From Verrucomicrobiota bacterium (GTDB taxonomy: Bacteria > Verrucomicrobiota > Kiritimatiellia > CAIQIC01 > Lenti-01): a DNA stretch of 27,885 nt. Of this stretch, positions 325-27,884 are shown in pieces (positions within the stretch are counted from its first letter, which is position 1; each line of letters begins with the position of its first letter). Both the position numbers and the translations under genes were made by a program. The stretch is from positions 1 through 27,885 of the forward strand of contig DMJA01000066.1 in assembly GCA_003451935.1 (NCBI GenBank), in the 5' to 3' direction. The notes under the pieces are model-generated. The model was given only the letters and a program-made list of their open reading frames with translations. It was not told where the DNA came from and ran no database searches.

Positions 325-2562
325 CTACTTGCTTTTTTTGCGGAACCGCTTGGCCGGGGCGGCTTTTTCCTCTTCCAGCGCGGCCTCGGGCGGGGCTTCC
401 ACCGCCACTTCTTCCAGCTTAGCTTCCGGAGCCGCCACCAAACCGGGTTCCGGCACCGCTTCGACCGGAGCTGCGGGCGCGACACTCGACTCGACCGGCA
501 CCGGCTCCGTTGCCGCTTCGGGAGCGACCGTGGCCTGCGCGATTTCCGGCGCGACCACGGGGGCGATGGCTTCCGCATCTTTCGCGTCCTGGGCCGCCTG
601 CGCCTCGACCTGCTTCTTGAACTCCTCCGCGAATTTCTTCTGGTCGGCCCGCTCCTTCACCCGGCGCTGGTGAACGAGGCGCGCATCTTCGGGAATCCCA
701 GCGTTCTCCTCCAAGACACCCGGATCGGCAACCGACAAGGTGACGAAGATGATGGTTTCGACCTGGCTCTTGACGGTCTTCTCATGCGAGAACAGGCGCC
801 CGATGATCGGGAGGCTCCCCAGGACGGGCACGCGTTTGGTCACCTTTTGATCCTGCACGTCCGTCAAGCCGCCGATGGCCACGGTCTGGCCGCTGCGCAA
901 GGTGAACGTGGTGCCGATCTCCTTGAGCGAAATGATGGGCCAGGAGTTGACGCCCACTTCCTTGAACTCCAGCAGGCGCCGCAGGGAGGGATTGATGAAC
1001 GCCTCGATGTAGTCGTCGGTCTTGACCGTGGCGATCACATCCAGGTCGATGCCGGTCCGGAGATAGCCGCCATCGATGAAGTCCGTCTTGATCCCGGTGT
1101 CCAGCTTCGAGGTGATCGTATCGCCCGGGCTGTCCGTCGTGCCCTTCTTGAGTTCCGAGGAGACGATCGGATCGCGCCGACCGATGCTGAAGAACGAATT
1201 GGTGGCTCCGCTCGTGACGATCATCTTCGGGTTGGAGACGACGCTGACGCCATCCATCGTTTCCAAGGCGCTCAGCACCACGGAGAGATCCGCCGGCGAC
1301 AGGATGGCCGTTTTGATGTCGTCGTACATCTTGTTGGAAATGCGCTCCGCCAGGGATTCGGCGCCGGACCCGCTCGCCCGCTGCGACACCCAATAGGTGG
1401 AAGGCGTTCCCTCCCAATCCTGCTCCGTCAACACGCTGGGCGTGCTTTGCCATCCCGATTCGGTGTCCGACGAGGTTTCAAAGGTGCCGAACCCGGGCTG
1501 ACTGCCCCATGTGTCATAGGTGGCGGCCGAAACCTCCTCGCCGTCCTGATCCTTGAAATCCATCCGGCCGGCTTGCGTCCCCTGCAAATTGTACCCGACG
1601 GCCCGGTCGCGGTTCAGGTTGTCGCGCTGGCGCGTCTCCGACATCTGCCATTCCATATCCGTCAGGCCGACCTTGTAGCCGGCCAGGATGCTCCAATCGA
1701 TGCCCAGTTGCTTCACGGCGTCGTCGGACAGTTCCATGATCTTGGTCTCGATCAGCACCTGGCGGCCGGGCTTGTCGAGGGTCTTGATCAGGGAACGGAC
1801 CTCGGCCAGGCGGGACTCGGTCGAGCGGACCACGATGGCATTGCGGGAGGCCATGGGCAGAACGTTGTTGCTGGATCCAACAATGCCGACCAAGGTGCTT
1901 TGGAGCTGGTCCACGGTGGTGAAATCCAGGAAGAAGGTTTCGACATACAGGGGCTCGGGGGCATTGGTGACCGGGGCCTGGATGCTATACACCTTGGAAT
2001 TGGGCGGCTGTTCCCGGAGATCGAGTTGGTGGACGGCCAGGATCGCGCGTAGCGCGGAAAGCCATTCCACGTCGCGGAGGTTGAAGGTGACGCGGTTGGT
2101 GAGCAGCGAATCGGCTCCAATGATGTTGGCGCCGACCTGCTGGGAGAACAAACTCACGGTGTCCTGCAGGGTCGCATCCTTCAGCGAAACCGTGATTAAT
2201 TCGACCCCGTCCACGGTGCGGGTCGTCATTTGGGTGGCCGCTTCGGCCTCGCCCTCGGCGAAATCGACGAAGTCCACCTCCTGCGGCGCGGCGGGAGCCA
2301 CCGCTTCCGGCGTGGCGGCGGCCGTCGTTTCCGCTGCGGCAGGTGCCACGACTTCCGGCGCGGGCGCGGGCTGTTCCATGGGGGCCAGTTCACGCCCCTC
2401 CAGCGAGGCGGCGTCCAAATTGTCCTTGGCATCGCTCGCGGCATTGATCAGGTCGATGGGGCCGGCCCCTCCCATCAAGGCGCAGGAGAAGACGAGGAGC
2501 AAGAGACCGATCAGGGTTCCGTGCCGGGGCGCGGAGTTACGGGGACGTTTGATTTGTTTCAT
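325..2562 (-). CDS. pilQ: Secretin, PilQ/GspD family (745 aa)
   Basis: Start reassigned to ATG 2562 (AAGGAG RBS, ATGA overlap with the upstream stop). N0-like 'ITVSLKDATLQDTV', N3 'RNAIVVRSTESRLAEVRSLIKTLDKP', and secretin core 'QVLIETKIMEL...GIDW', 'NPKMIVT', 'GQTVAIGGL...KRVPVLGSLPIIGRLF...ETIIFVT'. Last gene after pilMNOP. Confidence 0.93.
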   Translation of the reverse strand: MKQIKRPRNSAPRHGTLIGLLLLVFSCALMGGAGPIDLINAASDAKDNLDAASLEGRELAPMEQPAPAPEVVAPAAAETTAAATPEAVAPAAPQEVDFVDFAEGEAEAATQMTTRTVDGVELITVSLKDATLQDTVSLFSQQVGANIIGADSLLTNRVTFNLRDVEWLSALRAILAVHQLDLREQPPNSKVYSIQAPVTNAPEPLYVETFFLDFTTVDQLQSTLVGIVGSSNNVLPMASRNAIVVRSTESRLAEVRSLIKTLDKPGRQVLIETKIMELSDDAVKQLGIDWSILAGYKVGLTDMEWQMSETRQRDNLNRDRAVGYNLQGTQAGRMDFKDQDGEEVSAATYDTWGSQPGFGTFETSSDTESGWQSTPSVLTEQDWEGTPSTYWVSQRASGSGAESLAERISNKMYDDIKTAILSPADLSVVLSALETMDGVSVVSNPKMIVTSGATNSFFSIGRRDPIVSSELKKGTTDSPGDTITSKLDTGIKTDFIDGGYLRTGIDLDVIATVKTDDYIEAFINPSLRRLLEFKEVGVNSWPIISLKEIGTTFTLRSGQTVAIGGLTDVQDQKVTKRVPVLGSLPIIGRLFSHEKTVKSQVETIIFVTLSVADPGVLEENAGIPEDARLVHQRRVKERADQKKFAEEFKKQVEAQAAQDAKDAEAIAPVVAPEIAQATVAPEAATEPVPVESSVAPAAPVEAVPEPGLVAAPEAKLEEVAVEAPPEAALEEEKAAPAKRFRKKSK

Positions 2563-3059
2563 GGTGCTTTCTCCTTGAGGCGTGGCTCCGGGTCGGCCGG
2601 GGTCTTTGGGACGGGCTTCGCCGGAAATCGGGTGCGGGTAATTCCCAACCGGGCGGATTCGACCCCCCGCTCCGTGATGCGGAGGATGCGCCAATGGAAC
2701 CAGCGCCCGTTGGATTGGATGGAAACCACTTTCTTTTCGCCCACGACGCCGACCCCCTCGACCAGGATTCGGTACGTGCCGTCGGCCGCCCGGGAATGCC
2801 CGCGCACGGGCAGGGCCGGCCAAACCACATCCGCCGTTTCGGTTTCGAATCCCGCCGCCGCGCGGGCCGGGGCGGGCGGCGCATAACCGACCGGCCAGAA
2901 GGGATCACGCCGGGTGGCCGCCTCCATGCGCGCGGCCACCTTGCCTTCGGATTTTTCGGCGGCGGAAAGCCCCATGGCCGCCGCCAACATAATCAGGGCC
3001 GCCCGTGTCCCGGCGGTTCTGGGTTTCTGGACAAAGGTTGGTGGATTCCGCTGGTTCAT
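2559..3059 (-). CDS. PilP/GspC-like periplasmic protein (166 aa)
   Basis: Lies between pilO and the secretin with ATGA overlaps at both ends. Hydrophobic signal 'AALIMLAAAMGLSA', 'RRDPFWP' motif, beta-rich C-terminus. Confidence 0.65.
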   Translation of the reverse strand: MNQRNPPTFVQKPRTAGTRAALIMLAAAMGLSAAEKSEGKVAARMEAATRRDPFWPVGYAPPAPARAAAGFETETADVVWPALPVRGHSRAADGTYRILVEGVGVVGEKKVVSIQSNGRWFHWRILRITERGVESARLGITRTRFPAKPVPKTPADPEPRLKEKAP

Positions 3060-13381: not shown

Positions 13382-13410
13382 ATGCTACGTCCCGAGCTAG
13401 AATATGTCAA
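13382..13410 (-). promoter_or_regulatory. Near-consensus sigma70 promoter of the beta-propeller gene
   Basis: Minus strand TTGACA-N17-TAGCAT. The predicted +1 is only a few nt before ATG 13372, so the mRNA may be nearly leaderless. Confidence 0.65.
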
Positions 13411-13504
13411 TTGGCAGCCCCCCCCCAGGTTGCCCTTGTGGTTGTCCATTTCTTGGGGCATATTCCGGTCCATGGACGGGTTCTTCCAGAATGGAGGAAT
13501 GGGC

Positions 13505-16500
13505 ATGGGAAAGATCGGGCGGACCGGCATGCTTCTCTTGTGGGTGTTGCTTCTTCCGGCGCCCGTCCTAGCTGGCGATTACACCTACACCACGAATTCC
13601 TCCAACCCCGATACCATCACCCTCACGGGATACAACGGGCCGAGTGGCGTGGTGGACATTCCTTCCAGTTTGGATGGCAAGACCGTCACCGCGATCGGGA
13701 ACAATGCCTTCCGCGGCAATACCGGACTAACGGGCGTCCACATCCCCGCCACCGTCGACTCCATCGGAAGCTATGCCTTCCAGACCTGTACCAGCCTGAC
13801 GAACATCTACCTTCCCGATGGCGTCGCTTCCATCGGAAACTATGCCTTCCACGATTGCTCGAACTTGCGGAACGTCCTCATCCCCGGCAGTGTCGCTTCC
13901 ATCGGAACCGGTGCATTCCAAGGATGCTCTGGACTGACGGGCGTCGCCATCGGCAACGGCGTGGCCACACTTGGAAGCTATGCGTTCTATGGATGCACCC
14001 GGCTCTCCAACGTCATCCTTCCCGACAGTGTCACCTCGATCCAAGATCGCGCTTTCGACGCCTGTACCGGCCTGGCATCCATCTCCATCACGGAGGGAAA
14101 CCCCACCTATTCCAGCCGGGACGGAATCCTGTTCAACAAAACGCAGACCGCGCTCATCCAACATCCCGGAGGCCGGGGCGGTGTCTTTGCCGTTCCCGAT
14201 GGCATCACCTCGATCGGGAACTATGCATTCTGCGGCCGCACCGGCCTGGCCACCATCAGCCTCCCCCCCACCCTCGTCGCCATCGGCAACTATGCGTTTC
14301 AAGGGTGCACCGGACTGACAAGTCTTGACCTCCCCGACGCCGTCGCCACGATCGGAAGCTATGCGTTCTCCGGATGCACCAGCCTGCGAAGCATCAATAT
14401 CCCGGGCGCCCTCTCTACAATTGCCGCCAGCACATTTCAAGGTTGTTCCGGCCTGACGGGCATCCAGATCCATGATGGCGTTGTCGCCATCGGAAACAGC
14501 GCGTTCCAAGGATGCTCCGGTCTGGCGGATGTCGCCATCGGCAGCGGCGTGGCCACGATCGGGAGCCAGGCGTTCTACGGTTGCACACGGCTCGCGGACA
14601 TCGCCATCCCCGACGCCGTCGCCACAATCCAGGATCGCGCCTTCGACGGTTGCACCCGCCTGGCCTCCATTTCTGTCGCGGAGGGCAACCTCGCCTATTC
14701 CAGCCGGGACGGCGTGCTCTTCAATAAATCCCAAACCGCTTTCATTCAGCACCCGGGAGGCCAGCAAGGGGCCTACGCCATCCCCGCCGGAGTTGCCTCG
14801 ATTGGAAACTATGCCTTCTGCGCACGTACCGGCCTGACGCACATCGACATCCCGTCCACGGTCGTTTCGGTCGGGGCCTATGCATTCCAAGGATGCACCG
14901 GGCTGACGAGCGTCCAGATTCCCGATGGCGTTGCCTCGATCGGCAACTATGCGTTTCATGGCTGCACAAGCCTGAGAGACATCAACATCCCCGCCAGCCT
15001 CTCTGCCATCGCCGCCGGGACGTTTCAGGGCTGCGCCGGCTTGACAAGCGTGGCGATTCCCGATGGCGTCGCTTCGATCGGAACCTATGCGTTCTATGGG
15101 TGCTCCGGCCTTGCCGGCATCGACATCCCCGCCAGCGTCTCCACAGTCCAGGAGCGTGCGTTCGATGGATGCTCCCGCCTGGCCGCCATCTCCGTCGACG
15201 AAGGCAACGACGCCTATTCCAGCCAGGACGGCGTCCTGTTCAACAAGGATCAAACCGTGCTCATCCAGCATCCCGGCGGCCAAGGCGGGGCCTACAGCGT
15301 TCCCGACGGTGTCACCTCCATCGGAAACTATGCGTTTTGTCTCCGCCCCGGCCTGACGAGTGTGGGACTCCCCGGCACCCTCGCTTCGATTGGAAACTAC
15401 GCATTCCAGGGATGCACCGGGCTGACGCATATCGGCATCCCCGACAGCACCGCCGCCATCGGCATCGGTTCGTTTCTGGGCTGTTCCGCCCTGAAGAATG
15501 TCACGATGGGCAACGGCGTCGCCACGATTGGGAGCAGCGCGTTTCAAGGGTGTATCGGCTTGACGGACATCACCGTCGGCAATGACATCGCCACAATCGG
15601 CAGTTACGCCTTCTTCGGCTGTTCCAGCCTGGAGACCCTGACCATCCCCGACAGCGTCGCCACGATTCAGGATCGCGCGTTCGACGGGTGCTCCAGTTTG
15701 ACCTCCATTTCCGTGGCGGAGGGCAACACCGCCTATTCCAGCCGGGATGGCGTCCTCTTCAACAAGACGCAGACCACGCTCCTCCAACATCCCGGCGGAC
15801 AGGGCGGGGCCTATGCCGTTCCCGACGGTGTCACCTCGATCGGAATCTATGCGTTCAACGGCCGTACCGGCTTGGCCGGCATCAACCTCCCCTCCACTCT
15901 CATCTCCATCGGCAACTATGCGTTCCAAGGGTGCACTGGGCTGACCAGCATCGGCATCCCCGACAGTGTCGTTTCGCTCGGAAGCTGCGCACTCCAAGGA
16001 TGCACTGGACTGACCAACGCCTTGATAGGCAATGGGGTTTCCGCGATTGGCGGCCTTGCGTTCTACGGATGCTCCAGCCTGGCCTATATCGATCTCCCCG
16101 ACAGCGTCGCCACGATTCAGGACCGGGCGTTCGATGGGTGCTCCAGTTTGGCCGCCATTTCCGTCGCGTCGGGCAACTCCGCCTATTCCAGCCGGGACGG
16201 CGTCCTGTTCAACAAAGATCAAACCAAGCTCATCCAACATCCCGGAGGTTTGGGCGGACCGTATGCCGTCCCCAATGGCGTCGCCGCGATTGGGGACTAT
16301 GCGTTCAACGGCCGCACCGGCCTGACGAGCGTTGTCCTCCCCGATGGCGTCACCTCCATCGGCAGCTATGCGTTCCAAGGCGGCACCGGCCTGGAGGAAA
16401 TCATCCTCCCTGGCAGCGTCGCCTCGATTGGAAGCGGGGCCTTTCTGGGCTGTACCAGCCTGGGACGCGTTCATATTCCTGACGGCGTCACTTCAATCGG

Positions 16501-18142
16501 CAATGGCGCGTTCCAAAGTTGCTCCGGCTTGACGAATGCCATCATCGGCACCAACGTCACCACCATCGGAAATTCCGCATTCTACAATTGCTCCGGACTG
16601 ACAGGCGTGGCCATCCCCGCCAGCGTAACCTCGATCCAGGAACGCGCGTTCGATGGTTGCTCCAGTTTGACCGGCATTTCCGTCTCGGCGGGCAATCTGG
16701 CCTATTCCAGCGTAGACGGGATCCTCTTCAACAAGACCCAAACCGAGCTCCTTCAATATCCGGGTGGCAAGGAAGGGGCATATGCCATCCCCCCCGGCAT
16801 CGCGACAATCGGCAACTTTGCGTTCAACGGACGCACCGGCCTGACCGCCATCGATATCCCCGCCGGGGTCACCTCGATCGGGAACTATGCGTTTTATGCT
16901 TGCACCGGACTGACGAACATCACCCTCCCCGACAGTATCGTCGCAATCGGCAGCTATGCGTTCTGCGGGTGCTCGAGCCTGACAAACATCCATCTCCCCG
17001 AAGGTGTCGTCTCGATCGGGAATGGCACCTTCCAGAGTTGCACCGGATTGACCGGCATCCGCATCCCCACCGGCGCCACCGCGATTGGGAATTACGCGTT
17101 CTATGGGTGCAGCGGGCTGACAAACGCGGCAATCCCCGGAAATGTCACTTCGATCGGGAGCTATGCCTTCTTCGGTTGCTCCACCCTCTCCGGCGTGGAC
17201 ATTCCCGACAGTGTCATCTCAATCCAGGATCGCGCCTTCGACGCCTGTCCCGACTTGGTCGCCATCTCCGTTGCGGAGGGGAACCCCGCCTATTCCAGCT
17301 TGGATGGCGTTCTCCTCAATAAGGACTTGACCCTTCTGGTTCAATGCCCCGGCGCACGGTCGGGCTCCTACTCCATTCCCGGCCGCGTCGCCACGATCGG
17401 GAACTATGCGTTCAATGGGTGCACAGGCCTGACGGATGTCGTCATGGGCGGGGCCGTGACGACGATCGGCGCCCATGCATTTGAAGGATGCCTCAACCTC
17501 GCCGCGCTGGTCGTTCCAGGCGGCGTGATCCATGTCGGCATCTCTGCGTTTGACGGATTTCCCGGCGCTTTGTATTTCCAAGGAAACGCCCCCGTATTCG
17601 AACACCACCTCCCGGGCTTGGCTTCCATCTACTACTGCCTCGGCACATCGGGTTGGGATGCCTACACCTCCCCCAAAAGCATCTGGACGAGCGTTGCGGC
17701 CTTCGAGGCCGGCGAAGGAATGCCGTCGTATGCGAGCCAGACCGGCAACGTGGGCAATGCCTACGGCGTGTTGCCGACGGCAACCCGCCCAGGCTTTGCG
17801 TTTGGCGGGTGGTGGACGGAGGCAAATGGCATGGGCACCCATGTGTTCACCAATTCAACCGTCCCCTATGTGACCACGGGGCATGTGCTTTATGCCCATT
17901 GGACCGAAACGCCGGCGCTGGATGCAGAAGACGAGGTGCGGTTCCTCTCCGACAGACTATCCTTTGGCCTCCCGACCGGCTATTCGGCCTGTATGGTCGA
18001 ATGTGCTACCGTCGTGACGAACGGGGCGTGGAATTTCTCGCCCCTGGATGCGAATGAATACGGAATATCGAACGGCACCGTGACCTTGTATTATTTACCG
18101 GAACGTCCCAAGGCCATTTATCGGGCGCAATTCAGCCCGTAG
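13505..18142 (+). CDS. BspA-family (TpLRR/LRR_5) surface protein with a Listeria-Bacteroides (InlB B-type) repeat and a C-terminal domain (1545 aa)
   Basis: ATG 13505 with GGAGG 7 nt upstream. Sec signal 'MGKIGRTGMLLLWVLLLPAPVLA'. Dozens of 23-aa 'LTSIxIPDxVxSIGxYAFxGC' repeats. 'LPTATRPGFAFGGWWT...VLYAHW' at about 17690-17905. Confidence 0.92.
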   Translation: MGKIGRTGMLLLWVLLLPAPVLAGDYTYTTNSSNPDTITLTGYNGPSGVVDIPSSLDGKTVTAIGNNAFRGNTGLTGVHIPATVDSIGSYAFQTCTSLTNIYLPDGVASIGNYAFHDCSNLRNVLIPGSVASIGTGAFQGCSGLTGVAIGNGVATLGSYAFYGCTRLSNVILPDSVTSIQDRAFDACTGLASISITEGNPTYSSRDGILFNKTQTALIQHPGGRGGVFAVPDGITSIGNYAFCGRTGLATISLPPTLVAIGNYAFQGCTGLTSLDLPDAVATIGSYAFSGCTSLRSINIPGALSTIAASTFQGCSGLTGIQIHDGVVAIGNSAFQGCSGLADVAIGSGVATIGSQAFYGCTRLADIAIPDAVATIQDRAFDGCTRLASISVAEGNLAYSSRDGVLFNKSQTAFIQHPGGQQGAYAIPAGVASIGNYAFCARTGLTHIDIPSTVVSVGAYAFQGCTGLTSVQIPDGVASIGNYAFHGCTSLRDINIPASLSAIAAGTFQGCAGLTSVAIPDGVASIGTYAFYGCSGLAGIDIPASVSTVQERAFDGCSRLAAISVDEGNDAYSSQDGVLFNKDQTVLIQHPGGQGGAYSVPDGVTSIGNYAFCLRPGLTSVGLPGTLASIGNYAFQGCTGLTHIGIPDSTAAIGIGSFLGCSALKNVTMGNGVATIGSSAFQGCIGLTDITVGNDIATIGSYAFFGCSSLETLTIPDSVATIQDRAFDGCSSLTSISVAEGNTAYSSRDGVLFNKTQTTLLQHPGGQGGAYAVPDGVTSIGIYAFNGRTGLAGINLPSTLISIGNYAFQGCTGLTSIGIPDSVVSLGSCALQGCTGLTNALIGNGVSAIGGLAFYGCSSLAYIDLPDSVATIQDRAFDGCSSLAAISVASGNSAYSSRDGVLFNKDQTKLIQHPGGLGGPYAVPNGVAAIGDYAFNGRTGLTSVVLPDGVTSIGSYAFQGGTGLEEIILPGSVASIGSGAFLGCTSLGRVHIPDGVTSIGNGAFQSCSGLTNAIIGTNVTTIGNSAFYNCSGLTGVAIPASVTSIQERAFDGCSSLTGISVSAGNLAYSSVDGILFNKTQTELLQYPGGKEGAYAIPPGIATIGNFAFNGRTGLTAIDIPAGVTSIGNYAFYACTGLTNITLPDSIVAIGSYAFCGCSSLTNIHLPEGVVSIGNGTFQSCTGLTGIRIPTGATAIGNYAFYGCSGLTNAAIPGNVTSIGSYAFFGCSTLSGVDIPDSVISIQDRAFDACPDLVAISVAEGNPAYSSLDGVLLNKDLTLLVQCPGARSGSYSIPGRVATIGNYAFNGCTGLTDVVMGGAVTTIGAHAFEGCLNLAALVVPGGVIHVGISAFDGFPGALYFQGNAPVFEHHLPGLASIYYCLGTSGWDAYTSPKSIWTSVAAFEAGEGMPSYASQTGNVGNAYGVLPTATRPGFAFGGWWTEANGMGTHVFTNSTVPYVTTGHVLYAHWTETPALDAEDEVRFLSDRLSFGLPTGYSACMVECATVVTNGAWNFSPLDANEYGISNGTVTLYYLPERPKAIYRAQFSP
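13690..17560 (+). repeat. Intragenic 69-nt LRR repeats grouped into seven super-modules
   Basis: The motif TATTCCAGC (Tyr-Ser-Ser of 'YSSRDGVLFNK') occurs at 14108, 14696, 15215, 15734, 16184, 16703 and 17291. Confidence 0.9.
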
Positions 18143-18225
18143 TTGCTCCCGCATATGGCCGGGAGCCGCGAGGGGAGAGAACTGCCCGACAGGAGTTGAA
18201 CCGGCAATCTCGTGCTCTGTACTTG

Positions 18226-18254
18226 AAAAATCGCCGTTCTTATTAATATGGCGA
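18226..18254 (-). terminator. Possible weak terminator after the giant gene
   Basis: Minus strand TCGCC(AT)-loop-(AC)GGCGA-TTTTT: a 5-bp core stem, a long AT-rich loop and a U tract. Confidence 0.3.
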
Positions 18255-18341
18255 AGGTTGCCGCCAATCGGACCGACGATCGAGATTTCGCTCACCGCCT
18301 TCCCCCGCCCGGCGTGCAGAGTTGAGCCGGTTCCGGCAGCG

Positions 18342-21300
18342 CTATTCCTCGTCGACCTGGATGAGATACAGGCCGATGCCGCCGATGTCCGTGTCGAGGT
18401 ATTCGTTTCCTTCGGGATCGGCGGGGATGCCGGATTCGATGGCCTGGAAGCCCTGGATCAGGTTTGTTGAACGCAGGATCTTGTAGCGTTCGTCCACGCG
18501 GCCCAGCCAGCGGATCCAGACGCCGTTCGTCCCAAGGCTCACGGGGCTTTGCAACTTGAGGGCGATCGCGGTGCGCTCGAACGGCCCATAGACCTGCAGG
18601 TCGCCGGAGGTTTCCACCTCCACCAGCCGATAGGTGTAGGTGCCGCCCGCCACCGCCCCGGCGTCCACCAGGGAATACGCCGTGCCGAAGCCGTCCACGC
18701 CCTGGGCATAGAGGATGTCCTTATTCACCCGCACCCAGGCGCTGCCATCCCAGCGCTCCACATAGAACCCGACGGTGTCTTCCTCCGAAGCCGTCCGCCA
18801 GCGGACCACCACCTGGTCGTTTTCCTCCCCGGCGGTGAAGCTGTACAGCACCACGCGGGTGGTGGAATAAGGCTGGAAATAGATCTGATCGATTTCAGTG
18901 GCCTGGGCCCCGTCTATTGTCTGAACCGCGACGACGCCGAAATACCCGTTGGATTCCAGCGTGGAATCCACGCCCGTGCCTTGGAAGACGGTGGCATTGG
19001 CGGGGACTTCCGTGGCCACGCTGCCCTCGCCATTGGTGGTGGGCAGGACGGAGGTGTAGAGCTCCCACACGCCGGCGCTCTTGCGGCCATGGGTGACCCG
19101 GATCAGGAACCCGACGTCCGTCAGCCCGTCGACCAGCGACTCCTCCGAAGTCAGGATGGTGGCATCGGCGACGCCATTCGTGACCCGTTCCAGACGGATC
19201 TTGTCCCCATAGGTGCTGTCGCCTCCAATCGCCAGGCGATAGCCATCCACCGTGGAGGATTCCAGGTCGGCTTCGTTCGCATACAGCCAGATGTACATGC
19301 GGTTGGCGGTGGCGAACTCCATGTTCCGGCGCCCCACCCACAGGCCCCATTCCTGGGAAACGCCCCAGTACGCGATCTGGGTCCGCAGTTGGTTCGTTGC
19401 CGTACCCGCCGGGCCATTCTGCCGCAAGGTCTGGGAGCCCGTGGCGCCGGCGCCCGCATCGCTGTCGGCCACAATGATCCAATTGGTTGTATCGCCGGAC
19501 CAGACAGGCGACCCCGTGAAATTGCCGTCTATGAAACCATCCAGCGGGGCGGACGCCGTGATGAGCACGCTGGTGACCCCCGCCAACCCGCCGCCATTCG
19601 CGGCAATCGTGAATTCCCCGGCCTCGCTGTACTGAAGCGCGGTCCAGGTGTAGGCACCCGTGACCAAAGATTGGGCACCTCCCCCGCTCAAGGTCCCGGA
19701 TCCGCTGGCCTGGCCGAGGGTCACGCTGACGATGGAATCCACATCCACGTTCTGGTTGGCATCCTGCGCCTGCACGACGGCGCTGAAGTTCTGGGCGATG
19801 GGCACCACGGTGGCGAGCGAGGCGAACGCCAGCTGGGTGGCCGCGACGATGATCCGGTTGCGGTCTCCGGTCACGTCGGTCGCGGCGCCGCCGGCGTCGG
19901 CGGCCGCGAAGATCGACCCGGCGCTGTCGGCCGTGGCGCTGGCGACCGTGAAGGTCAACTGCGCGTTGTCGGTGACGGTGCTGGCGAAACTGGCCAGGAC
20001 TTTGAAAGTCTTGGTGGCGCCATCCGCGGCGGACAGGCCGGCCAGGTTGGTGAACACCACGGTGGTGCCGCCGTAGCCTTCGGCGATTTCGGTGGTGCCG
20101 TCATAGAGCGCCACCCGGCGCAGGTTGTCGCCGTTGGCGACCGTGAAGGTGATCGCCGTCAGCGTGGTCCCAAGCGCATCCGAATCGGCGGCGCCGCCGC
20201 CGTCGCGGATCGTGAAGCTGCCGACTTGCAGGGACGACGACGTCAGGTTGGTTTCCTGATAGGAGCCATAGGCGATGCTGGAAAACTCGGTGAAGCCGGA
20301 GTCGCGGATGATGTCGGAGTCGGCGCTATAGGTGCCCGTCCCGGTCACCACCTTGTCCTTTTGCGTCGCACCAGCGCTGGTGTGCGTGAGGACCGAGTTG
20401 TACACCCCGGCCGTGGCCGGCTTGAACCGCACGAAAATTGTCGTCTCCGCCACGGTCCCGCTGGATGGCGTCAGCGAAATCGCCGAGGAGCTGAAACCCG
20501 AGCCGCTGGTGAGGGAGATCTCAAATCCCGGCGGGGGGGTGATCACGATGTTGGCGCCCAGGTTCACCCCCGACACCGTGTAGGACTGCTCGGCGGACGC
20601 CACATTGGTCACCACGCTGCCGAACGCCAAGGCGTCGCCCGAAACCAGGATTCCGGGGGTCGTGGAATCCACATCCACGATTCCGAAGATATCCAGGCCA
20701 TAGCTGTTGTCGGCACGGGAATAGAACCCCCACGCACCCGTTCCGGTCTGTCCGCTGGCAAAGTAGCGCAGGGTCACCGTCGCGCCTTCCGTCAGGTTTT
20801 GGAGGGCGGACACCCCGGAGAAATCCCACGCGCGGGTGAGGCTGGTGGATTCCAACGGGGATCCGATCCAAGTGAAATTGGTCCCGTCCAAGCTGTAGGC
20901 CCACTGGTCCCGGACACCCGTATAGTTGATGACATTCGTGTAGAAACTTGGGGTGCCCGCGAATCGGCCCGTGATGCTCGTCAGCGAAAGCTTGTGGCCA
21001 GGGGCGGAGGACAGCGTCACCTGGTAATAGTCGTTGCTGTCCAGCGCAATGCCCTCGTTGCCAAATCCGGTGGTCCGGAAGGAGTTGGTGCCGGTGCTGG
21101 CCGGGGCGCCCGCCCCGCGGGTGATGTTGGAAGAACCGTCCATGCTGGCGTTGTACACTTCCGCGGTCCATGTCGCTGGATAGGGCGAACCCGCCCCGGT
21201 GAAATCCCAGGCCGCGAGGCTCGAAGGGCCGAGGGTCACCGCCACCTCCACCGTCTGCGTCGCCACGCCCGCGAGGTTGCTGGCCGTGAAGGTGAAGGTG

Positions 21301-24300
21301 TTCGTCTTGCCCCCTTCGGACAACGGCGGCGTGTAGCTCAACTCGCCTGTCCCCGCCGTGAATACATAGCCCGACGGGGCCGTCGTGCTTTGCAGCGCCA
21401 GCGTGGGTGCGGGCGCGCCCGAGGCGGTTTCCGTGAAGACCAAGGCCACGCCCGTGGTCGTGGCGTACGGGCCGGCGCCGCCTGTGAAGGCCGGCGCCGA
21501 AGCCGCCGTCACCACGACGCTGACGGTTTGGGTCGCCACGCCCAGTTCGTTGCTCGCCGTGAAGGTGAAGGTCTTGGTCGTCCCTCCATCGGCCAGCGGC
21601 GGCGTGTAGGTCAGGACGCCCGTCGCCGGAACAAAGTCGTAGCCCGAGGTGGCCGTCTGGGATTCCAAGGCCAATGCGGGCGTCGGCCAGCCGGTCGCAC
21701 TCACCGTGAAGGCCGTCGCCACTCCCGACGTCGCATACTGGGTCCCCAACGCATTGAACACCGGGGCGTTCGAAATGACCAGCGTGCCGTTGGTCGAGCC
21801 TTGGTAGAGGAGATCGTTCACGATGCCCGTCACGGCGTAGCTGCCGGCATTGCTGGGCGCGGTCGCCGAGCCGTCATAGGTGACGTCCACGGACAAATCC
21901 GCCGGAACGGTTGTCACCGTGACGGTCTTGGCGTTGCCGTCCCACATCTGCGCCAGGTTGCCCAGGGTCACGGTCGCCTTGGCCTTGGTCACGTTGAACG
22001 TGTTGGTCACATCCGGCGCCGGATCCCAACTGGTATTGCCGGCCTGCGAGGCCACGATGCTGACGGTCCCCGACGTCGAGAACGTCAGGTTCGTGCCACT
22101 GGCGATCGACCCCGGCCCGCTGGCCACCGCAAAACTCACCGGCAGGCCGCTGGAGGCAATCGCCGTAAGCTTCACCAAATTCGTCGCGGTCTGGTTGTCG
22201 ATGGGCGCGAAGTGGATGGCCTGCACCCCCTTCGTGGCCACGCTGGCCACGGAGGAATAGGTGCCGGTGCCGATCGCCGAAACCGCCCGCGCACGGAAAT
22301 AATAGGTCGCGCCAGCCGCCAGTCCCGTCACGGACTGGCTCGTGCCCGCCACCGTCAGATTTGAATAGCCGGGGATGTAGGCCGGCGTGGCCAGCGAGCC
22401 TTGGATCAGGATGTCGTCACCCGCGCCTTCGAAGCCCAGGGCGCCGCCGGAGGCTCCCCCCCACCCCGCCAGCCGGAAGGTGATGGCGCCGGATACATTC
22501 TGAAACGCGGGAACTCCGTTCAGATCGCAAGACAAGGCAAGAGCGGCCGTGTTGGTCGCCATTCCATTGGTCGACACCAGATTCGTCGCATAGCCGTCAT
22601 GGCTTGCCCGCAGCGCGAGATTGGAGGCACCGGTGGCGGACCGCTGGATGTTCAGGAGGATGTTGGTGATGGACATTGTCACGTGGTCAGCGCCCGGCTG
22701 GATGGTCCACTCGAAATATTCGCCTGCCGCCAATGCGGCCGCGGCATCCGCGAAGTTGGTGGACCAGCCACCGGCGTTGAACCGGCCCGCATTCGCCGAA
22801 GCCGTCAATCCCGTGCCGCGGGTGATATAGGCGGGAGCCTGCATGTGGGTGGCCGCGAAGGTGGAAATCCCCTGCGCCTCGTCGCCCGCATAGTCCGCAA
22901 AGTCGAAGGCGATCAAGTTGGTGTTCGCGCTGCCGGCCGTGAAATTCGAATTCGCTCCGACATCGAGCCGGTAGCTCGTTGCGCCCCCCGGCGCGCCCCA
23001 GGCCGCCGTGAAGTCCGCGGCGTTCATCGCGCTCGCCCAGATCGGAGCCGGTGCCGCGGGCAGGCCCTCGGCCACCACCACGCTGACCACCTGCGTGTCC
23101 ATGCCCAGGCTGTTGCTCGCCGTGAAAGTGAATGACACATCGCCAACATCCGCATACGGTGGTGTGTAGGTCAGCAGGCCCGTCGCAGGGTTCAAGGTAT
23201 AACTGCCGGGCGTTGCCCCGGTATCCGCTTCCACCACCGCAAAGGTGGGAGGCAAGCCCTGGACGCTCACGGTGAAGGACATCGGCACCCCCGACGTTGC
23301 GTATTGCGTTCCCAGCGCGTTGAACACCGGCGGCGCATGCACGGCCACGCTCACCACCTGCGTCACCACGCCCAAGCTGTTGCTCGCCGTGAAGGTGAAG
23401 GTCCGCGTGCCCGCGTCCGCCAGCGGCGGCGTGTAGGTCAGCATGCTGGGGCTGGTGCCGTTCGTCCAGCCATAGGAGCCGCCGGTGGCCGTCGTGCTTT
23501 GCAGCGCCAGCGTGGGTACGGGATCGCCGGTCGCGCTCTCCGTGAAGGTCAACTCCACGCCATTCGTCGTGCTGTAGCTGGTCCCGCTGGTGAAGAACGG
23601 CGCCAGATCCACCGTCGTCACGCTCGCCACCGACGAATATGTCCCGGTGCCCAGCGCCGAGGCCGACCGCATCCGGAAGTAGTACAGGGTGTTCGGTGTC
23701 AGCCCCGTCACGGAATGGCTCGTGCCGGAAACCGTCAAATTTGAATAGCCGGGGACGTAGGAAGGATCGCCGCTGACGCCGGTCACGGTAAATGAACCCG
23801 CGGGCGGCAGGGCGTTTGTCACCGTGTTGCTGACCGTCCAGTTGTTCGTGTTGCCGATGGCGGCCAGCAGCTCCGCCTTGGTGCCGGCTGTAACACTCAT
23901 GCCATAGACGAAATTATCCACCTCGTTCAAGGCGATGGCCGTTGTTCCATCAGTCAATCCCGTGGGAAGGCCGGACGATTCGGTATTCGTTGCGCTGGCC
24001 TGCCAGCCGATATCTTGGCTATTGACCGCGTAAATCATGGTCGTGGACGAGGCCGTCTTTTGATAAGCGAGAATCTGGTCGCCGGAAGCGGACAAGGCAA
24101 AGGAAGTGCCGGAAACCGTCCCCGTACTTGCTGTCGCGCTCGGGGTAATCGACACCATGGTCCCGGCCATGATGGGATTGGCGGTCGAATTCGACCAAAG
24201 CACGATCCCCTCCCCTGTCCGGAAGTGGTCGTTCGTCCACCCGTTCTCCGTGAAGTAAATGGCCGTGCCCACGTCGAGATTCGCCAAGGCGAGAAACGTG

Positions 24301-27300
24301 AACCGATCGGCATCGAAGTTCGCCCCGATGATGGCGATGTCGCCGGCCGTGAGCGTGGACACCGGCGCGGCCACATTGCCAAGGAACATCGCGTTCGTGC
24401 TGACATCCAGCCGGTAGTTGTCCGAGGCGTTTGCCACCGCGGTCCAGGCCGCCGTGAAGTCCGCGGTGTTCGTCGCGCTCGCCCAGATCGGGCTCGGCGG
24501 GGGAGGCAGGCCTTCCGTCACCGTCACCGACACGTTCGTCGTCGCCACGCCCTGGCTGTTGCTCGCCGTGAAGTAGAAGGTCTGGGTGCCGACGTCCGCA
24601 TAGGGCGCCGTATAGGTCAACACGCCCGAAGCCGGATTGAAGCTGTAGCCACTCGTCGCCGTCGAATTCGTCAAGGCCAGCGTGATGGGCGTGGGATAGC
24701 CGCTGGCGCCGACCGTGAAGGCCATCGCCACATCCGTCGTCGCGCTCTGCGCCGCCAGCGCGTTGAACACCGGCGCAGCGTACACCGTCACGGTGACGGT
24801 CTGCGTCGCCACGCCCAGTCCGTTGCTCGCCGTGAAGGTGAAGGTCCGCGGCCCCGCGTCCGCCTGCGGCGGCGTGTAGTCCAGCGTGCCCGTCGCATTG
24901 GTGAACCAGTAATAGCCGTTCGAAGCCGTCGTGCTCTTCAGGACCAGCGCGGGGGTCGGCGCCCCGGTGGATGTGTTCACGGTGTAGGTGGCCATCGCCA
25001 CCCCGGCCGTGGCGCTCAGCGCGATGGCGTTGGTGGCGAATTCCGGCGCGGAGCCCCCCACCCACACATAGACGGTCTGCGTCGCCACGCCCACGGCGTT
25101 GCTCGCCGTGAAGGTGAACGTCCGCTCGCCGCTCTCCTCCTCCGGCGGGGTGTAGGTCAGCACGCCCGTATTCGTCGCGGCCGGGAAGCTGTAGCCGTTG
25201 GTGGCCGTCGTGCCTTGCAGCGCCAAGACGGGCGCATCACCCGACGCGCTCACCGTGATGGCCGTCGCCACCCCCACCGGCACGTAGAAGGTCCCCGTGC
25301 CGCTGGTGAAGGCCGGCATGCTTTCCCGGGTCGTCACATTCGCCGTCGGCGAGGAATTGGTGCTCGTCCCCGTTCCCGCAACCGTCCACACCCGGAAGTA
25401 ATACGTCGAATTCGTCGTCAGATTCGTCACAATTTGGCTCGTGCCCGAAACCGTCCGGTTCGAATAGCCTGGGACGTAATCCGGCGTACCGCCGCTCGGC
25501 TGGGTGATGGACACATCATCCACCCACAATTTCAGATCGCCCGTTGAAGTGTACACGTAAAGGACGCCAAAATAGCTTGCTGTGGTATGAGTGGTTTCCG
25601 TGGCCGGCGTCCCATAGGAGGTCAGCGCATCGAAGTTCCCGTTCGTGTCCACCTTGAGACTCCACTCCCCTGCCGCAGTCCGGATCACTTCGATTCCGCC
25701 CGCATATGTGTTGCTCACAGTGGTCTGCCAATTCAATCCGCTGTTGATGACTTCGGTTGCCGCCCCGGCCGTGACTTCCCAGAGTCGCAAAATATCGTCG
25801 GATAGCCCGCCATAATTCACCCCCACGATGTACCCGTTGACCGTGCCCTTCCTGGTCATCTGCGCGGCATCCTGATCCGCGGACAGGAATACCGACCAAT
25901 AGTTGCCAGCCGAAGGAAGGTTTGCATGCTTCACCTGCATCCGCCAGGTCGTGTCGGCAGCCGTCAAATTCAAACCAGAAAGGGCATATGAAATCTGATT
26001 CGAGTTCGCCACGGTGTCATTATAGACCTGCTGCAATGAATACGTCCCATTGAGAGGATTGGTCGGAGACGCCATCCATCGGTCCGCAGGGCTTTGCGTC
26101 CAGCCCGTCAATAAACCGGATTCGAAGCCGTTGGATAAAATCGTTGTGGTCCCTGCGCTGCCAGACTGGAAATTGGAGTTCGTGCTGACATCGAGGAGGT
26201 AGCTGGTGGCGCCGGAGACCGGGGTCCAGGCGGCGGTGAAGTCGGTGAAGTTCGTCACGCTCGCCCAGATGTTGGTTGGGGCGGCGGGGGGAGTGTCGCT
26301 GACGGCCACGGTCACGGTCGTCGTCGCCACGCCTTCGGTGTTGGTTGCCCTGAAGTAGAAGATTTTGGAGCCCAGGTCCCCGACGGGCGGCGTGTAGTTC
26401 ACCGTCAGTTCAGTGCCGTTCGTCGTGCAGGTGTAGCTGCCCCCCGTCGCCGTCGAGTTCGTCAGGGCCAGCACGGGGTCGGGATAGCCGGTCGCGCTCA
26501 CCTTGAACGTCAGGAGCGAATCAACATAGGCCGTCTGCGCGCCAAGGGCATTGAATTGAGGCGGCGCAAGCCCCGGAATGATGGTCAGCGTGGTGTTCGA
26601 GGATCCCGTGTAGCCGGGCGAGGCGATCGTCGCCACCACCGCGTAGTCGCCCGTGGCGATCGGCGGAGTGGCCGAACCGTTGTAGGTGACGGCCACGTTC
26701 AGGAAGGCGGGAACCGTCGCCACCGTGACGGTCTTGGCGTTGCCGTCGTACATCTGCGACACGTTCGACACGGTGACCGTCGCGGCAAGCGGGTTGTAGG
26801 GCAGGACCACGATGTCGTCGAGGTTCATCATGCTGCTGTTGTTGCTGTTCGACGTCACTTGGAAGCGCAGATAGGTCGCCGGGCCCAGCGCCAGGGTGTT
26901 GGAATAGGCCAGGAAGGTGAGCTTGTTGGTGACCAGCAGGTTGGTGTGGCTGGTCCAATCCACGCCGTTGGCGCTGGTCTCCAGGGACAACTCGCATTTG
27001 GTGGAGGTTCCGTACAGGGCATAGTTGAACGCCACGGAATGGATGCCGTTGGAGAACGGCGTCAGGCTTTGCATCACGCCGTTGGTCGAGATGTCGTTGA
27101 CATAGCGCAGGCGGATGGACTTCAACCCGTTCGTCACGTCGTTCGTCGTGCTGCTGGTGATGGCGTTGTTCAAATACCAGACGGCGGGATTGGTGGCGGA
27201 CAATGTCCGGTTGACGGGAACGTAGCTCGAGGGAGGCGTGTAGGTTTCGAAATCGATGACGTAGGATGCGCCAACGGCCCTGCTGACCGTGGAGGTGTCC

Positions 27301-27884
27301 AAAATCGTCACCGCGCCGGCGAAGGTATTGGTGATGCCGTCATAGTGGGCATCGCCGGTCACGCGGACCGTCGCGCTGTAGATGCCGACGTTCTTGGGCG
27401 GATGGGCCGGGGAATAGGTCACCGACCAGGAGAGCCCGGTGGGCGCCACCGTGAACGTGTTGGTGTGCGCCAAGCCGTCATAGTTCGCCGTGATCCGCGA
27501 GTCGATCGAGCAGGTTGCCAACGCCTTGGTGACGACCACGGCGTTGCTGAACACGAAGGTGCCGCCCGTCGCGTTGGCATCCCCCACCACCTCCACCGTG
27601 GCATCGTAGCCGCCAATCTCCACGGGCGCCGACACAAATCCGTCGGGAATCCCGTTCGTCGTGTAGGTCACCGTCCACGCCATCCCCGGCGTCACCGTAA
27701 ACGTGTTGGTGTGCGCCGCGCCGTCGTAGGGCGTCGAGATGGCGGAATCCAACGTGCAGGTGGCGGTGCCCTGCGAGATATTCACGGAATTGGTGAACAC
27801 GAAGATGCCGCCGGTGACCTTGTTGGTGTCGGGAATCGTCACAATGGCGGTGTAGGTTCCGGCGTCGACGGGGCTCCCCGCAAC
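18342..27884 (-). CDS. Giant multidomain surface protein/adhesin, 5'-truncated (>3180 aa): MBG-like, Ig-like repeats, split FnIII domains with inserts, lectin-like domains, C-terminal domain
   Basis: The frame stays open past the listed GTG to the window edge (...VAGSPVDAGTYTAIVTIPD...), so the true start is outside the window. MBG-like 'YDGNAKTVTV...GDYAVVAT', FnIII 'FTAAW...YRLDV...YYFR', ASH-like 'LAFGSVVTN...QSYTVSG'. T/S/A/G/N-rich extracellular composition. Confidence 0.92.
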   Translation of the reverse strand, partial: VAGSPVDAGTYTAIVTIPDTNKVTGGIFVFTNSVNISQGTATCTLDSAISTPYDGAAHTNTFTVTPGMAWTVTYTTNGIPDGFVSAPVEIGGYDATVEVVGDANATGGTFVFSNAVVVTKALATCSIDSRITANYDGLAHTNTFTVAPTGLSWSVTYSPAHPPKNVGIYSATVRVTGDAHYDGITNTFAGAVTILDTSTVSRAVGASYVIDFETYTPPSSYVPVNRTLSATNPAVWYLNNAITSSTTNDVTNGLKSIRLRYVNDISTNGVMQSLTPFSNGIHSVAFNYALYGTSTKCELSLETSANGVDWTSHTNLLVTNKLTFLAYSNTLALGPATYLRFQVTSNSNNSSMMNLDDIVVLPYNPLAATVTVSNVSQMYDGNAKTVTVATVPAFLNVAVTYNGSATPPIATGDYAVVATIASPGYTGSSNTTLTIIPGLAPPQFNALGAQTAYVDSLLTFKVSATGYPDPVLALTNSTATGGSYTCTTNGTELTVNYTPPVGDLGSKIFYFRATNTEGVATTTVTVAVSDTPPAAPTNIWASVTNFTDFTAAWTPVSGATSYLLDVSTNSNFQSGSAGTTTILSNGFESGLLTGWTQSPADRWMASPTNPLNGTYSLQQVYNDTVANSNQISYALSGLNLTAADTTWRMQVKHANLPSAGNYWSVFLSADQDAAQMTRKGTVNGYIVGVNYGGLSDDILRLWEVTAGAATEVINSGLNWQTTVSNTYAGGIEVIRTAAGEWSLKVDTNGNFDALTSYGTPATETTHTTASYFGVLYVYTSTGDLKLWVDDVSITQPSGGTPDYVPGYSNRTVSGTSQIVTNLTTNSTYYFRVWTVAGTGTSTNSSPTANVTTRESMPAFTSGTGTFYVPVGVATAITVSASGDAPVLALQGTTATNGYSFPAATNTGVLTYTPPEEESGERTFTFTASNAVGVATQTVYVWVGGSAPEFATNAIALSATAGVAMATYTVNTSTGAPTPALVLKSTTASNGYYWFTNATGTLDYTPPQADAGPRTFTFTASNGLGVATQTVTVTVYAAPVFNALAAQSATTDVAMAFTVGASGYPTPITLALTNSTATSGYSFNPASGVLTYTAPYADVGTQTFYFTASNSQGVATTNVSVTVTEGLPPPPSPIWASATNTADFTAAWTAVANASDNYRLDVSTNAMFLGNVAAPVSTLTAGDIAIIGANFDADRFTFLALANLDVGTAIYFTENGWTNDHFRTGEGIVLWSNSTANPIMAGTMVSITPSATASTGTVSGTSFALSASGDQILAYQKTASSTTMIYAVNSQDIGWQASATNTESSGLPTGLTDGTTAIALNEVDNFVYGMSVTAGTKAELLAAIGNTNNWTVSNTVTNALPPAGSFTVTGVSGDPSYVPGYSNLTVSGTSHSVTGLTPNTLYYFRMRSASALGTGTYSSVASVTTVDLAPFFTSGTSYSTTNGVELTFTESATGDPVPTLALQSTTATGGSYGWTNGTSPSMLTYTPPLADAGTRTFTFTASNSLGVVTQVVSVAVHAPPVFNALGTQYATSGVPMSFTVSVQGLPPTFAVVEADTGATPGSYTLNPATGLLTYTPPYADVGDVSFTFTASNSLGMDTQVVSVVVAEGLPAAPAPIWASAMNAADFTAAWGAPGGATSYRLDVGANSNFTAGSANTNLIAFDFADYAGDEAQGISTFAATHMQAPAYITRGTGLTASANAGRFNAGGWSTNFADAAAALAAGEYFEWTIQPGADHVTMSITNILLNIQRSATGASNLALRASHDGYATNLVSTNGMATNTAALALSCDLNGVPAFQNVSGAITFRLAGWGGASGGALGFEGAGDDILIQGSLATPAYIPGYSNLTVAGTSQSVTGLAAGATYYFRARAVSAIGTGTYSSVASVATKGVQAIHFAPIDNQTATNLVKLTAIASSGLPVSFAVASGPGSIASGTNLTFSTSGTVSIVASQAGNTSWDPAPDVTNTFNVTKAKATVTLGNLAQMWDGNAKTVTVTTVPADLSVDVTYDGSATAPSNAGSYAVTGIVNDLLYQGSTNGTLVISNAPVFNALGTQYATSGVATAFTVSATGWPTPALALESQTATSGYDFVPATGVLTYTPPLADGGTTKTFTFTASNELGVATQTVSVVVTAASAPAFTGGAGPYATTTGVALVFTETASGAPAPTLALQSTTAPSGYVFTAGTGELSYTPPLSEGGKTNTFTFTASNLAGVATQTVEVAVTLGPSSLAAWDFTGAGSPYPATWTAEVYNASMDGSSNITRGAGAPASTGTNSFRTTGFGNEGIALDSNDYYQVTLSSAPGHKLSLTSITGRFAGTPSFYTNVINYTGVRDQWAYSLDGTNFTWIGSPLESTSLTRAWDFSGVSALQNLTEGATVTLRYFASGQTGTGAWGFYSRADNSYGLDIFGIVDVDSTTPGILVSGDALAFGSVVTNVASAEQSYTVSGVNLGANIVITPPPGFEISLTSGSGFSSSAISLTPSSGTVAETTIFVRFKPATAGVYNSVLTHTSAGATQKDKVVTGTGTYSADSDIIRDSGFTEFSSIAYGSYQETNLTSSSLQVGSFTIRDGGGAADSDALGTTLTAITFTVANGDNLRRVALYDGTTEIAEGYGGTTVVFTNLAGLSAADGATKTFKVLASFASTVTDNAQLTFTVASATADSAGSIFAAADAGGAATDVTGDRNRIIVAATQLAFASLATVVPIAQNFSAVVQAQDANQNVDVDSIVSVTLGQASGSGTLSGGGAQSLVTGAYTWTALQYSEAGEFTIAANGGGLAGVTSVLITASAPLDGFIDGNFTGSPVWSGDTTNWIIVADSDAGAGATGSQTLRQNGPAGTATNQLRTQIAYWGVSQEWGLWVGRRNMEFATANRMYIWLYANEADLESSTVDGYRLAIGGDSTYGDKIRLERVTNGVADATILTSEESLVDGLTDVGFLIRVTHGRKSAGVWELYTSVLPTTNGEGSVATEVPANATVFQGTGVDSTLESNGYFGVVAVQTIDGAQATEIDQIYFQPYSTTRVVLYSFTAGEENDQVVVRWRTASEEDTVGFYVERWDGSAWVRVNKDILYAQGVDGFGTAYSLVDAGAVAGGTYTYRLVEVETSGDLQVYGPFERTAIALKLQSPVSLGTNGVWIRWLGRVDERYKILRSTNLIQGFQAIESGIPADPEGNEYLDTDIGGIGLYLIQVDEE
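21240..26560 (-). repeat. Eight ~88-aa Ig/cadherin-like repeats within the giant protein
   Basis: Motif 'Y-T-[PA]-P...F-[TY]-F-x-A-[ST]-N-x-x-G-[VM]-x-T' near 26390, 25150, 24875, 24610, 23430, 23165, 21605 and 21330. Confidence 0.85.

Follow-up and report, generated by a model that had tools for sequence, protein, structure and literature searches.

Contig DMJA01000066.1 of a Verrucomicrobiota bacterium from the class Kiritimatiellia (GenBank assembly GCA_003451935.1) carries two convergent genes for large proteins, each of which ends in a short C-terminal domain, and the question raised by this locus is whether these tails serve as addresses on exported proteins and, if so, what would read them. 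The stretch analyzed here, referred to as the window, is the entire contig (27,885 nucleotides; C129) of a metagenome-assembled genome (MAG) of 1.85 Mb that is 66% complete. One of the two genes encodes a BspA-type leucine-rich repeat (LRR) protein, and the other one a giant protein rich in immunoglobulin-like (Ig), fibronectin type III (FN3) and MBG domains. In an earlier reading of the nucleotide sequence (hereafter, the sequence-only reading), both tails were proposed to be export signals analogous to the C-terminal domain (CTD) of the type IX secretion system (T9SS). Given the position of the tails, the export signals of their carriers and the diversity of the attached proteins, we put at about even the chance that they are sorting or anchoring tags, that is, a terminal domain on Sec-exported Kiritimatiellia proteins that is recognized by a shared envelope partner. 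The genes and tails in question are the following.

13382-18142, forward strand: gene of the BspA-type LRR protein (P0001; 1586 residues in the longest open reading frame (ORF), ending in ...AIYRAQFSP and the stop codon)
17888..18139, forward strand: BspA-type tail (P0001 residues 1503-1586; the match to the A3 profile ends at the last residue)
17954-18139, forward strand: conserved core of the BspA tail, the last 62 residues (F.LP.GY...VE.A....WNF.PL...Y..SN.TVT......IYR..F.P)
18342-27884, reverse strand: gene of the giant Ig/FN3/MBG-rich protein (P0002; more than 3180 residues, 5' end off the contig, ending in ...LYLIQVDEE and the stop codon)
18345..18563, reverse strand: domain B, the terminal 73-residue FN3-like tail of the giant (P0002 residues 3108-3180; the hidden Markov model match ends 0 residues from the end)
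18564..18863, reverse strand: domain A, the penultimate FN3-like domain of the giant (P0002 residues 3008-3107; motif WRTASEE..GF.VER)
18342..18344, reverse strand: stop codon of the giant gene, immediately after domain B

The C-terminal ends quoted in the sequence-only reading agree exactly with both translations. Neither tail contains a hydrophobic transmembrane stretch, an LPXTG motif or a PEP-CTERM motif when the translations are read directly, and the last 207 or 281 residues of the two proteins give no Pfam match to an autotransporter (type V secretion) barrel, which normally spans 250-300 residues; the absence of such anchors, noted from the sequence alone, is thereby upheld.

Tail families, their position and their passengers

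Besides domain B and the BspA-type tail, we consider a third family, which we call classic tails (...W..G..Y.v...dL...W....D....FYRv..P). Across the three families, 106 of the 107 genomic copies checked end within a few residues of a stop codon, the exception being in genome G038. Domain B is located at the ORF end in each of its 46 genomic copies, that is, all six from this MAG and all 40 stand-alone copies from more than 20 relatives; in the latter set, the in-frame stop lies 0-18 residues past the aligned end, and no more than eight residues past it in 36 copies. In a library of 1.8 billion proteins, 158 of the 165 instances of domain B (in 161 representative proteins) are within five residues of the projected end, two are 13-16 residues from it and five are internal, the latter being weak matches to ordinary FN3 repeats, all in a single protein (P0123). 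All 21 copies of the BspA-type tail are terminal, as are the 10 classic tails of this MAG and 29 of 30 classic loci in relatives. Proline occurs within the last three residues in 22 of the 46 domain B copies and 15 of the 21 BspA-type copies, compared with 28% of background ORFs, an enrichment that we set aside as evidence in view of the relatedness of the sequences and the GC bias of the background.

The carriers of the tails show the hallmarks of export. Of 127 full-length domain B carriers, 97 have a strongly hydrophobic segment at the N-terminus, whereas a control window placed inside the same proteins gives 12. Clear signal peptides are found on all three paralogues of the giant's terminal module in this MAG whose N-termini are complete. 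Because the N-terminus of the giant itself is off the contig, we infer its export from these signal-peptide-bearing paralogues and homologues. In the BspA-type protein, the signal peptide is followed downstream by LRR_5 BspA repeats (Pfam):

13499..13573, forward strand: Sec signal peptide of the BspA-type protein with the likely true start, M40 or M42 (MGKIGRTGMLLLWVLLLPAPVLA and, past the cleavage site, GD; read from the translation)

The longest ORF of this gene probably begins too far upstream (13382-13498), with the actual start at M40 (13499) or M42 (13505); given that the signal peptide starts at one of these residues, the first ~39 codons are likely untranslated.

The proteins to which the tails are attached are unrelated to each other and of extracellular type, including alpha-amylase, PATR, ice-binding-like, MAM, LTD, Kelch and nuclease/phosphatase proteins as well as C25 peptidases, FGE-sulfatase domains, the carbohydrate-binding modules (CBM) CBM48 and CBM53, and BspA LRRs. 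The number of copies ranges from 0 to 50 per genome for domain B and from 0 to 39 for the classic tails. The sequence-only reading had proposed to count profile matches and to ask whether the tails are always C-terminal on proteins with Sec signals, and this is what we observe, save for the one internal copy in G038. The proposed likeness to the T9SS CTD accordingly holds as far as terminal position, Sec signals, unrelated passengers and high copy number are concerned, but a secretion signal, a surface anchor, a docking module and a glycan binder are not separable in silico.

In the giant, domains A and B form a module of ~175 residues (18345-18863) that consists of two beta-sandwich halves, A and then B. 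By a six-frame ORF search, this module is common to six ORFs of the MAG, the giant and one ORF each on contigs C138, C86, C70, C166 and C131, and all five further copies stop 0-1 residues short of the stop codon. The six paralogues are 58-66% identical, and their upstream regions do not align, containing unrelated domains (alpha-amylase with PATR; ice-binding-like with SdrD_B; MAM with Ig; FN3 with LTD). The tail of ~75 residues delineated in the sequence-only reading is indeed a recurring domain, but it is the second half of the conserved unit, which is the entire A+B module. Domain B matches ~500 ORFs in 41 relatives; none of the 46 members of its alignment (A2; six from this MAG and 40 from relatives) matches Pfam or NCBIfam, and the family is present in neither of these curated libraries. 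Domain A, unlike the position-locked domain B, is elsewhere internal or arranged in tandem arrays. The A+B module also terminates a 475-residue protein with an FGE-sulfatase domain in the related genome GCA_040765705.1 (L078:2731-4158, reverse strand), which is unexpected, such enzymes usually being thought to be active before or during export.

The BspA tail belongs to a sequence family that is distinct from domain B and has the consensus F.LP.GY...VEGA....WNW.PL...Y..SN.TVT.....IRI...P. There are 20 further copies in relatives, all at the ends of ORFs of 128-2365 residues (measured as stop-to-stop frames; alignment A3, 21 members), and one further strong copy in this MAG, in a 714-residue ORF on contig C125. 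The passengers in this family include CBM48, CBM53 and Flg_new_2. Five of the 21 tails show weak matches to CBM_X2 (PF03442; best E-value 2e-4, under the gathering score); the BspA tail of the window and domain B do not match this model. A hydrophobic-Y-x-x-Q-hydrophobic ending was thought to be shared by the two tails of the window: the last strand is homologous and its aromatic and hydrophobic positions are kept, but the glutamine is not conserved.

Classic tails are found at the ends of at least 10 more ORFs in this MAG, without any internal occurrence there, and yield ~560 matches in 41 relatives, so that the recurrence of W..Y..STNL..W/F..FYR tails, to which the sequence-only reading had referred, is borne out. 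A thrombospondin-type-3-like acidic motif (D.DGD...EY.ADTDPT..S) precedes the classic tails on contigs C157 and C143, as well as two C-terminal ends with a weaker resemblance to tails (C128 and C117), and is missing ahead of the domain B and BspA-type tails of the window.

Profile-profile comparison with hhalign connects the classic tails (39 sequences) to the domain B family with a probability of 98.2% (E-value 3.5e-14), and to the BspA-type family with a probability of 92.8% (E-value 3.9e-7; 61 collinear columns reaching the last strand), the latter score being obtained with 39 and 21 sequences and dropping to only 55% with 10 classic sequences. In the controls, a 10-sequence alignment of the T9SS CTD scored 0.3% against each of A2, the classic tails and A3, and domain A scored 3-8%. 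Comparison of profiles was required for the first of these links, as an iterated domain B profile did not reach the classic tails within the MAG at 1e-3. Because both are linked to the classic tails by hhalign, the giant's tail and the BspA tail are, judging from these alignments, most readily interpreted as branches that diverged within a single loose superfamily of probable FN3-like domains of ~60-85 residues.

Fold and possible function

The AlphaFold model of domain B, based on 46 sequences (predicted local distance difference test score 82, predicted template modeling score 0.72), is a six-strand FN3-like sandwich. FN3 domains are on top of the structural matches, with a template modeling (TM) score of 0.5-0.63 in Foldseek and Z of 6-7.2 in VIA over 66-77 aligned residues, and T9SS CTDs do not appear in the first 50 rows of either search, although they could still rank lower. 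Pfam fn3 (PF00041) matches no tail at E<=1, the sequences of the PDB contained no meaningful match to the A+B profile, and the ESM Atlas contained only unnamed Verrucomicrobiota clusters, all below 0.9.

If the tails are sorting or anchoring tags, the signal peptide would take the protein across the inner membrane, and the folded terminal domain would then be recognized by a partner in the envelope that is common to all carriers. This partner, be it a surface receptor or a machine of the outer membrane for export or attachment, would deliver the passenger to the cell surface or hold it there. Such logic would resemble that of the T9SS CTD or of dockerins, with the tails homologous to neither, and the partner would be something other than the adjacent pilus secretin. 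A more specific version, under which tails of all three families mark the cargo of a dedicated Kiritimatiellia pathway for outer-membrane export or attachment, an independent counterpart of T9SS in the Planctomycetes-Verrucomicrobia-Chlamydiae (PVC) group that serves up to ~80 proteins per genome, strikes us as somewhat unlikely.

Several observations weigh against the tag interpretation. None of the candidate systems tested (pilus secretin, GspD, T9SS, exosortase and C25) yielded a partner or machine, and full-text searches of the literature turned up no paper or experiment on the function of the tails. The terminal position could also reflect a constraint unrelated to partner recognition, and there is one genuine internal classic copy (L122; G038:C187, ~11.8-12.6 kb). 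The fold of domain B carries no functional information because it is a generic FN3-like sandwich with Z of 6-7, in the common range of the tool. The kinship of the tails is a transitive link, weaker on the BspA side, given that the direct hhalign comparison of domain B (A2) with the BspA-type family (A3) was negative (5%). Finally, the joint occurrence of the two larger families in the 99 genomes of the class (domain B and classic tails in 56, domain B only in seven, classic tails only in four, neither in 32), which in itself favors the tag interpretation, is confounded and inflated by shared ancestry. In the internal copy of G038, the ORF runs for more than 490 residues beyond ...RFYRVQRQP; in the family to which this genome belongs (f3), tails are otherwise rare.

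The tails could alternatively be passive, an FN3-like domain that, as a structural end-cap or spacer, closes a beta-rich stalk without any dedicated partner. The generic fold, the weak cross-matches to the ordinary internal repeats of P0123 and the fact that no machinery co-occurred with the tails in any test made all fit this explanation, but nothing would confine a spacer to the end of a protein, and the adjacent domain A is not so confined; moreover, the tail is conserved beyond its passengers, as in the six A+B paralogues, and also closes enzymes without a stalk, such as proteins of 340-560 residues. We regard the end-cap as unlikely. We consider it quite unlikely that the tails are ligand-binding modules, CBM-like or adhesive, through which enzymes and adhesins would attach to the glycan layer of the cell itself or to a polysaccharide substrate. 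Many of the passengers are carbohydrate-active, and the sub-threshold CBM_X2 matches of the BspA-type tails point in the same direction, X2 modules having been implicated in the cell-surface localization of cellulosomes; CBMs, however, are not position-locked, the carriers of the tails include peptidases, nucleases, LRR adhesins and FGE-sulfatase domains, and there is no conserved aromatic platform past the structural W and Y.

Two further alternatives differ in what would read the tails. For this role, the sequence-only reading had suggested the pilus-type secretin system encoded next to the two genes, a cluster that includes a T2SS-M-like (type II secretion system) protein, a sigma-54-type regulator, a platform protein, a PilB-type ATPase and the secretin:

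325..2823, reverse strand: secretin of the neighboring type IV pilus cluster (Pfam Secretin and Secretin_N)

What recommends this system is proximity, the secretin, the PilB-like ATPase and the platform protein being encoded 3-13 kb from both genes. The composition of the cluster is nevertheless that of a type IV pilus, and the other tail genes of the MAG are on other contigs. Orthologues of the secretin (>200 bits) are present in only four of 19 congeners and missing from 14, all 19 having tails, and conversely in five of the six f3 genomes, which hold 0-2 copies of domain B, so that there is no phyletic link and we consider this role of the secretin most improbable. A strict T9SS-like pathway, with a PorU-like C25 peptidase that, as a sortase, would cut off the tail and attach the cargo, seems to us very improbable. 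The order is unusually rich in Peptidase_C25 (2-10 per genome), to which PorU and the gingipains belong. Of the 31 genomes that have three or more copies of domain B, 30 encode this peptidase, as against one of 10 with two or fewer; in GCA_040765705.1, an 877-residue C25 gene adjoins three tail-bearing genes. However, the C25 proteins are themselves cargo, many of them being giant ORFs with domain A and several ending in domain B or classic tails, which mostly explains the co-distribution and leaves it a weak lead to a sortase. Furthermore, C25 is missing in two tail-rich genomes, G039, with 14 copies of domain B and 18 classic tails, and G038, with 14 classic tails, and the T9SS models gave nothing above the cut-off in five genomes: SprA (TIGR04189) matched none of the five, its control also giving no match anywhere, and PorV (NF033710) had a control with sub-threshold matches only.

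Two other systems were rejected. The GspD-type secretin of the type II secretion system, tried as a discriminator, is found in the tail-less genomes G026, G030 and G036 as well as in the tail-rich G025 and G031. Exosortase does not complement the tails either, given that this MAG and all sampled families of the class but one encode it, tail-rich and tail-free genomes alike.

Known counterparts, taxonomic range and significance

Among known systems, the tags that we propose come close to the type A CTD of T9SS in Bacteroidota (PF18962 Por_Secre_tail/TIGR04183). It is likewise a small beta-sandwich (70-100 residues) at the extreme C-terminus of Sec-exported carriers, with unrelated passengers and tens of copies per genome, and it directly follows domain A in Bacteroidota-type proteins, just as domain B does here. 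It differs in the lack of sequence homology to the tails, as seen in the hhalign control above and in the absence of Pfam or NCBIfam matches (0 of 46 for domain B, 0 of 21 for the BspA type). Solved CTDs are seven-stranded Ig-like sandwiches; the model of domain B has six strands and is FN3-like, and may still resemble them. Verrucomicrobiota are outside the known range of T9SS.

Dockerins, which bind cohesins in cellulosomes, are also conserved modules of ~70 residues, usually C-terminal and present on many secreted enzymes, which implies one shared partner. Dockerins are calcium-binding pairs of helical EF-hands, not beta-sandwiches, and no cohesin-like scaffold was identified here. The predicted fold of domain B is shared with FN3 domains (the Fn3-like protein 3MPC and the FN3 domain of CtXyl5A, 5G56; TM-score 0.55-0.63, Z 6.8, 72 residues), but ordinary FN3 domains are internal and tandem, whereas the tail family is locked to the C-terminus. 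PEP-CTERM/exosortase and other transmembrane-type signals provide a C-terminal address on exported proteins too, and an exosortase is encoded in the MAG; the tails differ in lacking a transmembrane helix and a basic cluster, and the distributions are not complementary. With the cellulosomal CBM_X2 modules, the BspA-type tails have in common a small Ig-like beta domain, the matches being below the gathering score.

In Bacteroidota-type proteins, 80-114 residues remain after the last copy of domain A, and these hold a T9SS type A CTD; in other proteins, a transmembrane-plus-basic anchor ends the protein ~60-200 residues after the last copy. Domain A can thus be viewed as a choice-of-anchor domain, followed elsewhere by one or the other of these elements and here by domain B, which favors reading the terminal position as an address. 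A comparable exchange is seen among the passengers: PATR-repeat and C25-peptidase proteins, which carry the present tails in Kiritimatiellia, elsewhere have autotransporter barrels, PEP-CTERM signals or T9SS CTDs.

Most of the tails occur in the class Kiritimatiellia, where domain B is widespread. They are sparse in the other classes of the phylum, a minority of whose genomes have 1-14 copies each, usually 1-3, and none was found in the 48 genomes of a large sister family; the PVC-wide scope suggested by the sequence-only reading therefore has to be narrowed to a mainly Kiritimatiellia one. No description of these tails was found in the full-text literature. The present analysis contributes the B subfamily with the fixed A+B module, the BspA-type branch and its connection to the classic tails at the profile level, the observations on choice of anchor, and negative results for four candidate systems.

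Kiritimatiellia play a major part in the degradation of sulfated glycans from algae and hosts and encode many large enzymes and adhesins. A position-locked, uncurated tail on up to ~2% of the proteins of a genome would thus provide a handle on how these enzymes reach the surface and stay there: it would predict the surface proteome and could serve as a bait for finding the machinery, with the 56 genomes that have both subfamilies and the 32 that have neither as contrast sets for phylogenetic profiling. Tail families would also better annotate thousands of giant proteins currently labeled 'hypothetical', and should the tail be only a structural cap, its value would be that of annotation alone.

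Further features of the window and of tail-bearing genes

Immediately upstream of the BspA tail, there is one more recognizable domain:

17702..17899, forward strand: Flg_new (Listeria-Bacteroides repeat) domain (PF09479, E-value 5e-7, P0001 residues 1441-1506; TIGR02543)

In the gap of 199 nucleotides between the two convergent genes (18143-18341), a simple scan detected neither a promoter-like site nor a terminator-like hairpin with a T-run.

In relatives, many genes of tail proteins (P0161, P0037, P0040, P0092, P0102, P0087, P0090, P0081, P0076 and P0131, among others) have odd N-terminal extensions ahead of the signal peptide. The extensions FQSLEK, FPIIGK and FSNVWK look like three frames of one palindromic DNA motif, approximately TTCCAATCATTGGAA (back-translated from protein), of which the window contains no copy at up to two mismatches. 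If this motif is real, it would be a repeated upstream operator or hairpin that has been mis-called as coding.

Some C25 genes have a context of their own. The C25 ORF of this MAG (G000:C235:415-2949) ends in a classic FYRV tail, and Peptidase_C25 domains are often located inside ORFs of 3000-4700 residues that also hold domain A. In GCA_040765705.1 (L078:4276-9180 and L081:1-3929), a conserved row of genes is found directly upstream of three consecutive tail-bearing genes; it consists of the 877-residue C25 peptidase, PqqD, ORFs of 61 and 54 residues, a ScmC-like gene (a weak match) and an ORF of 212 residues, and resembles a cluster of the type that produces ribosomally synthesized and post-translationally modified peptides (RiPP).

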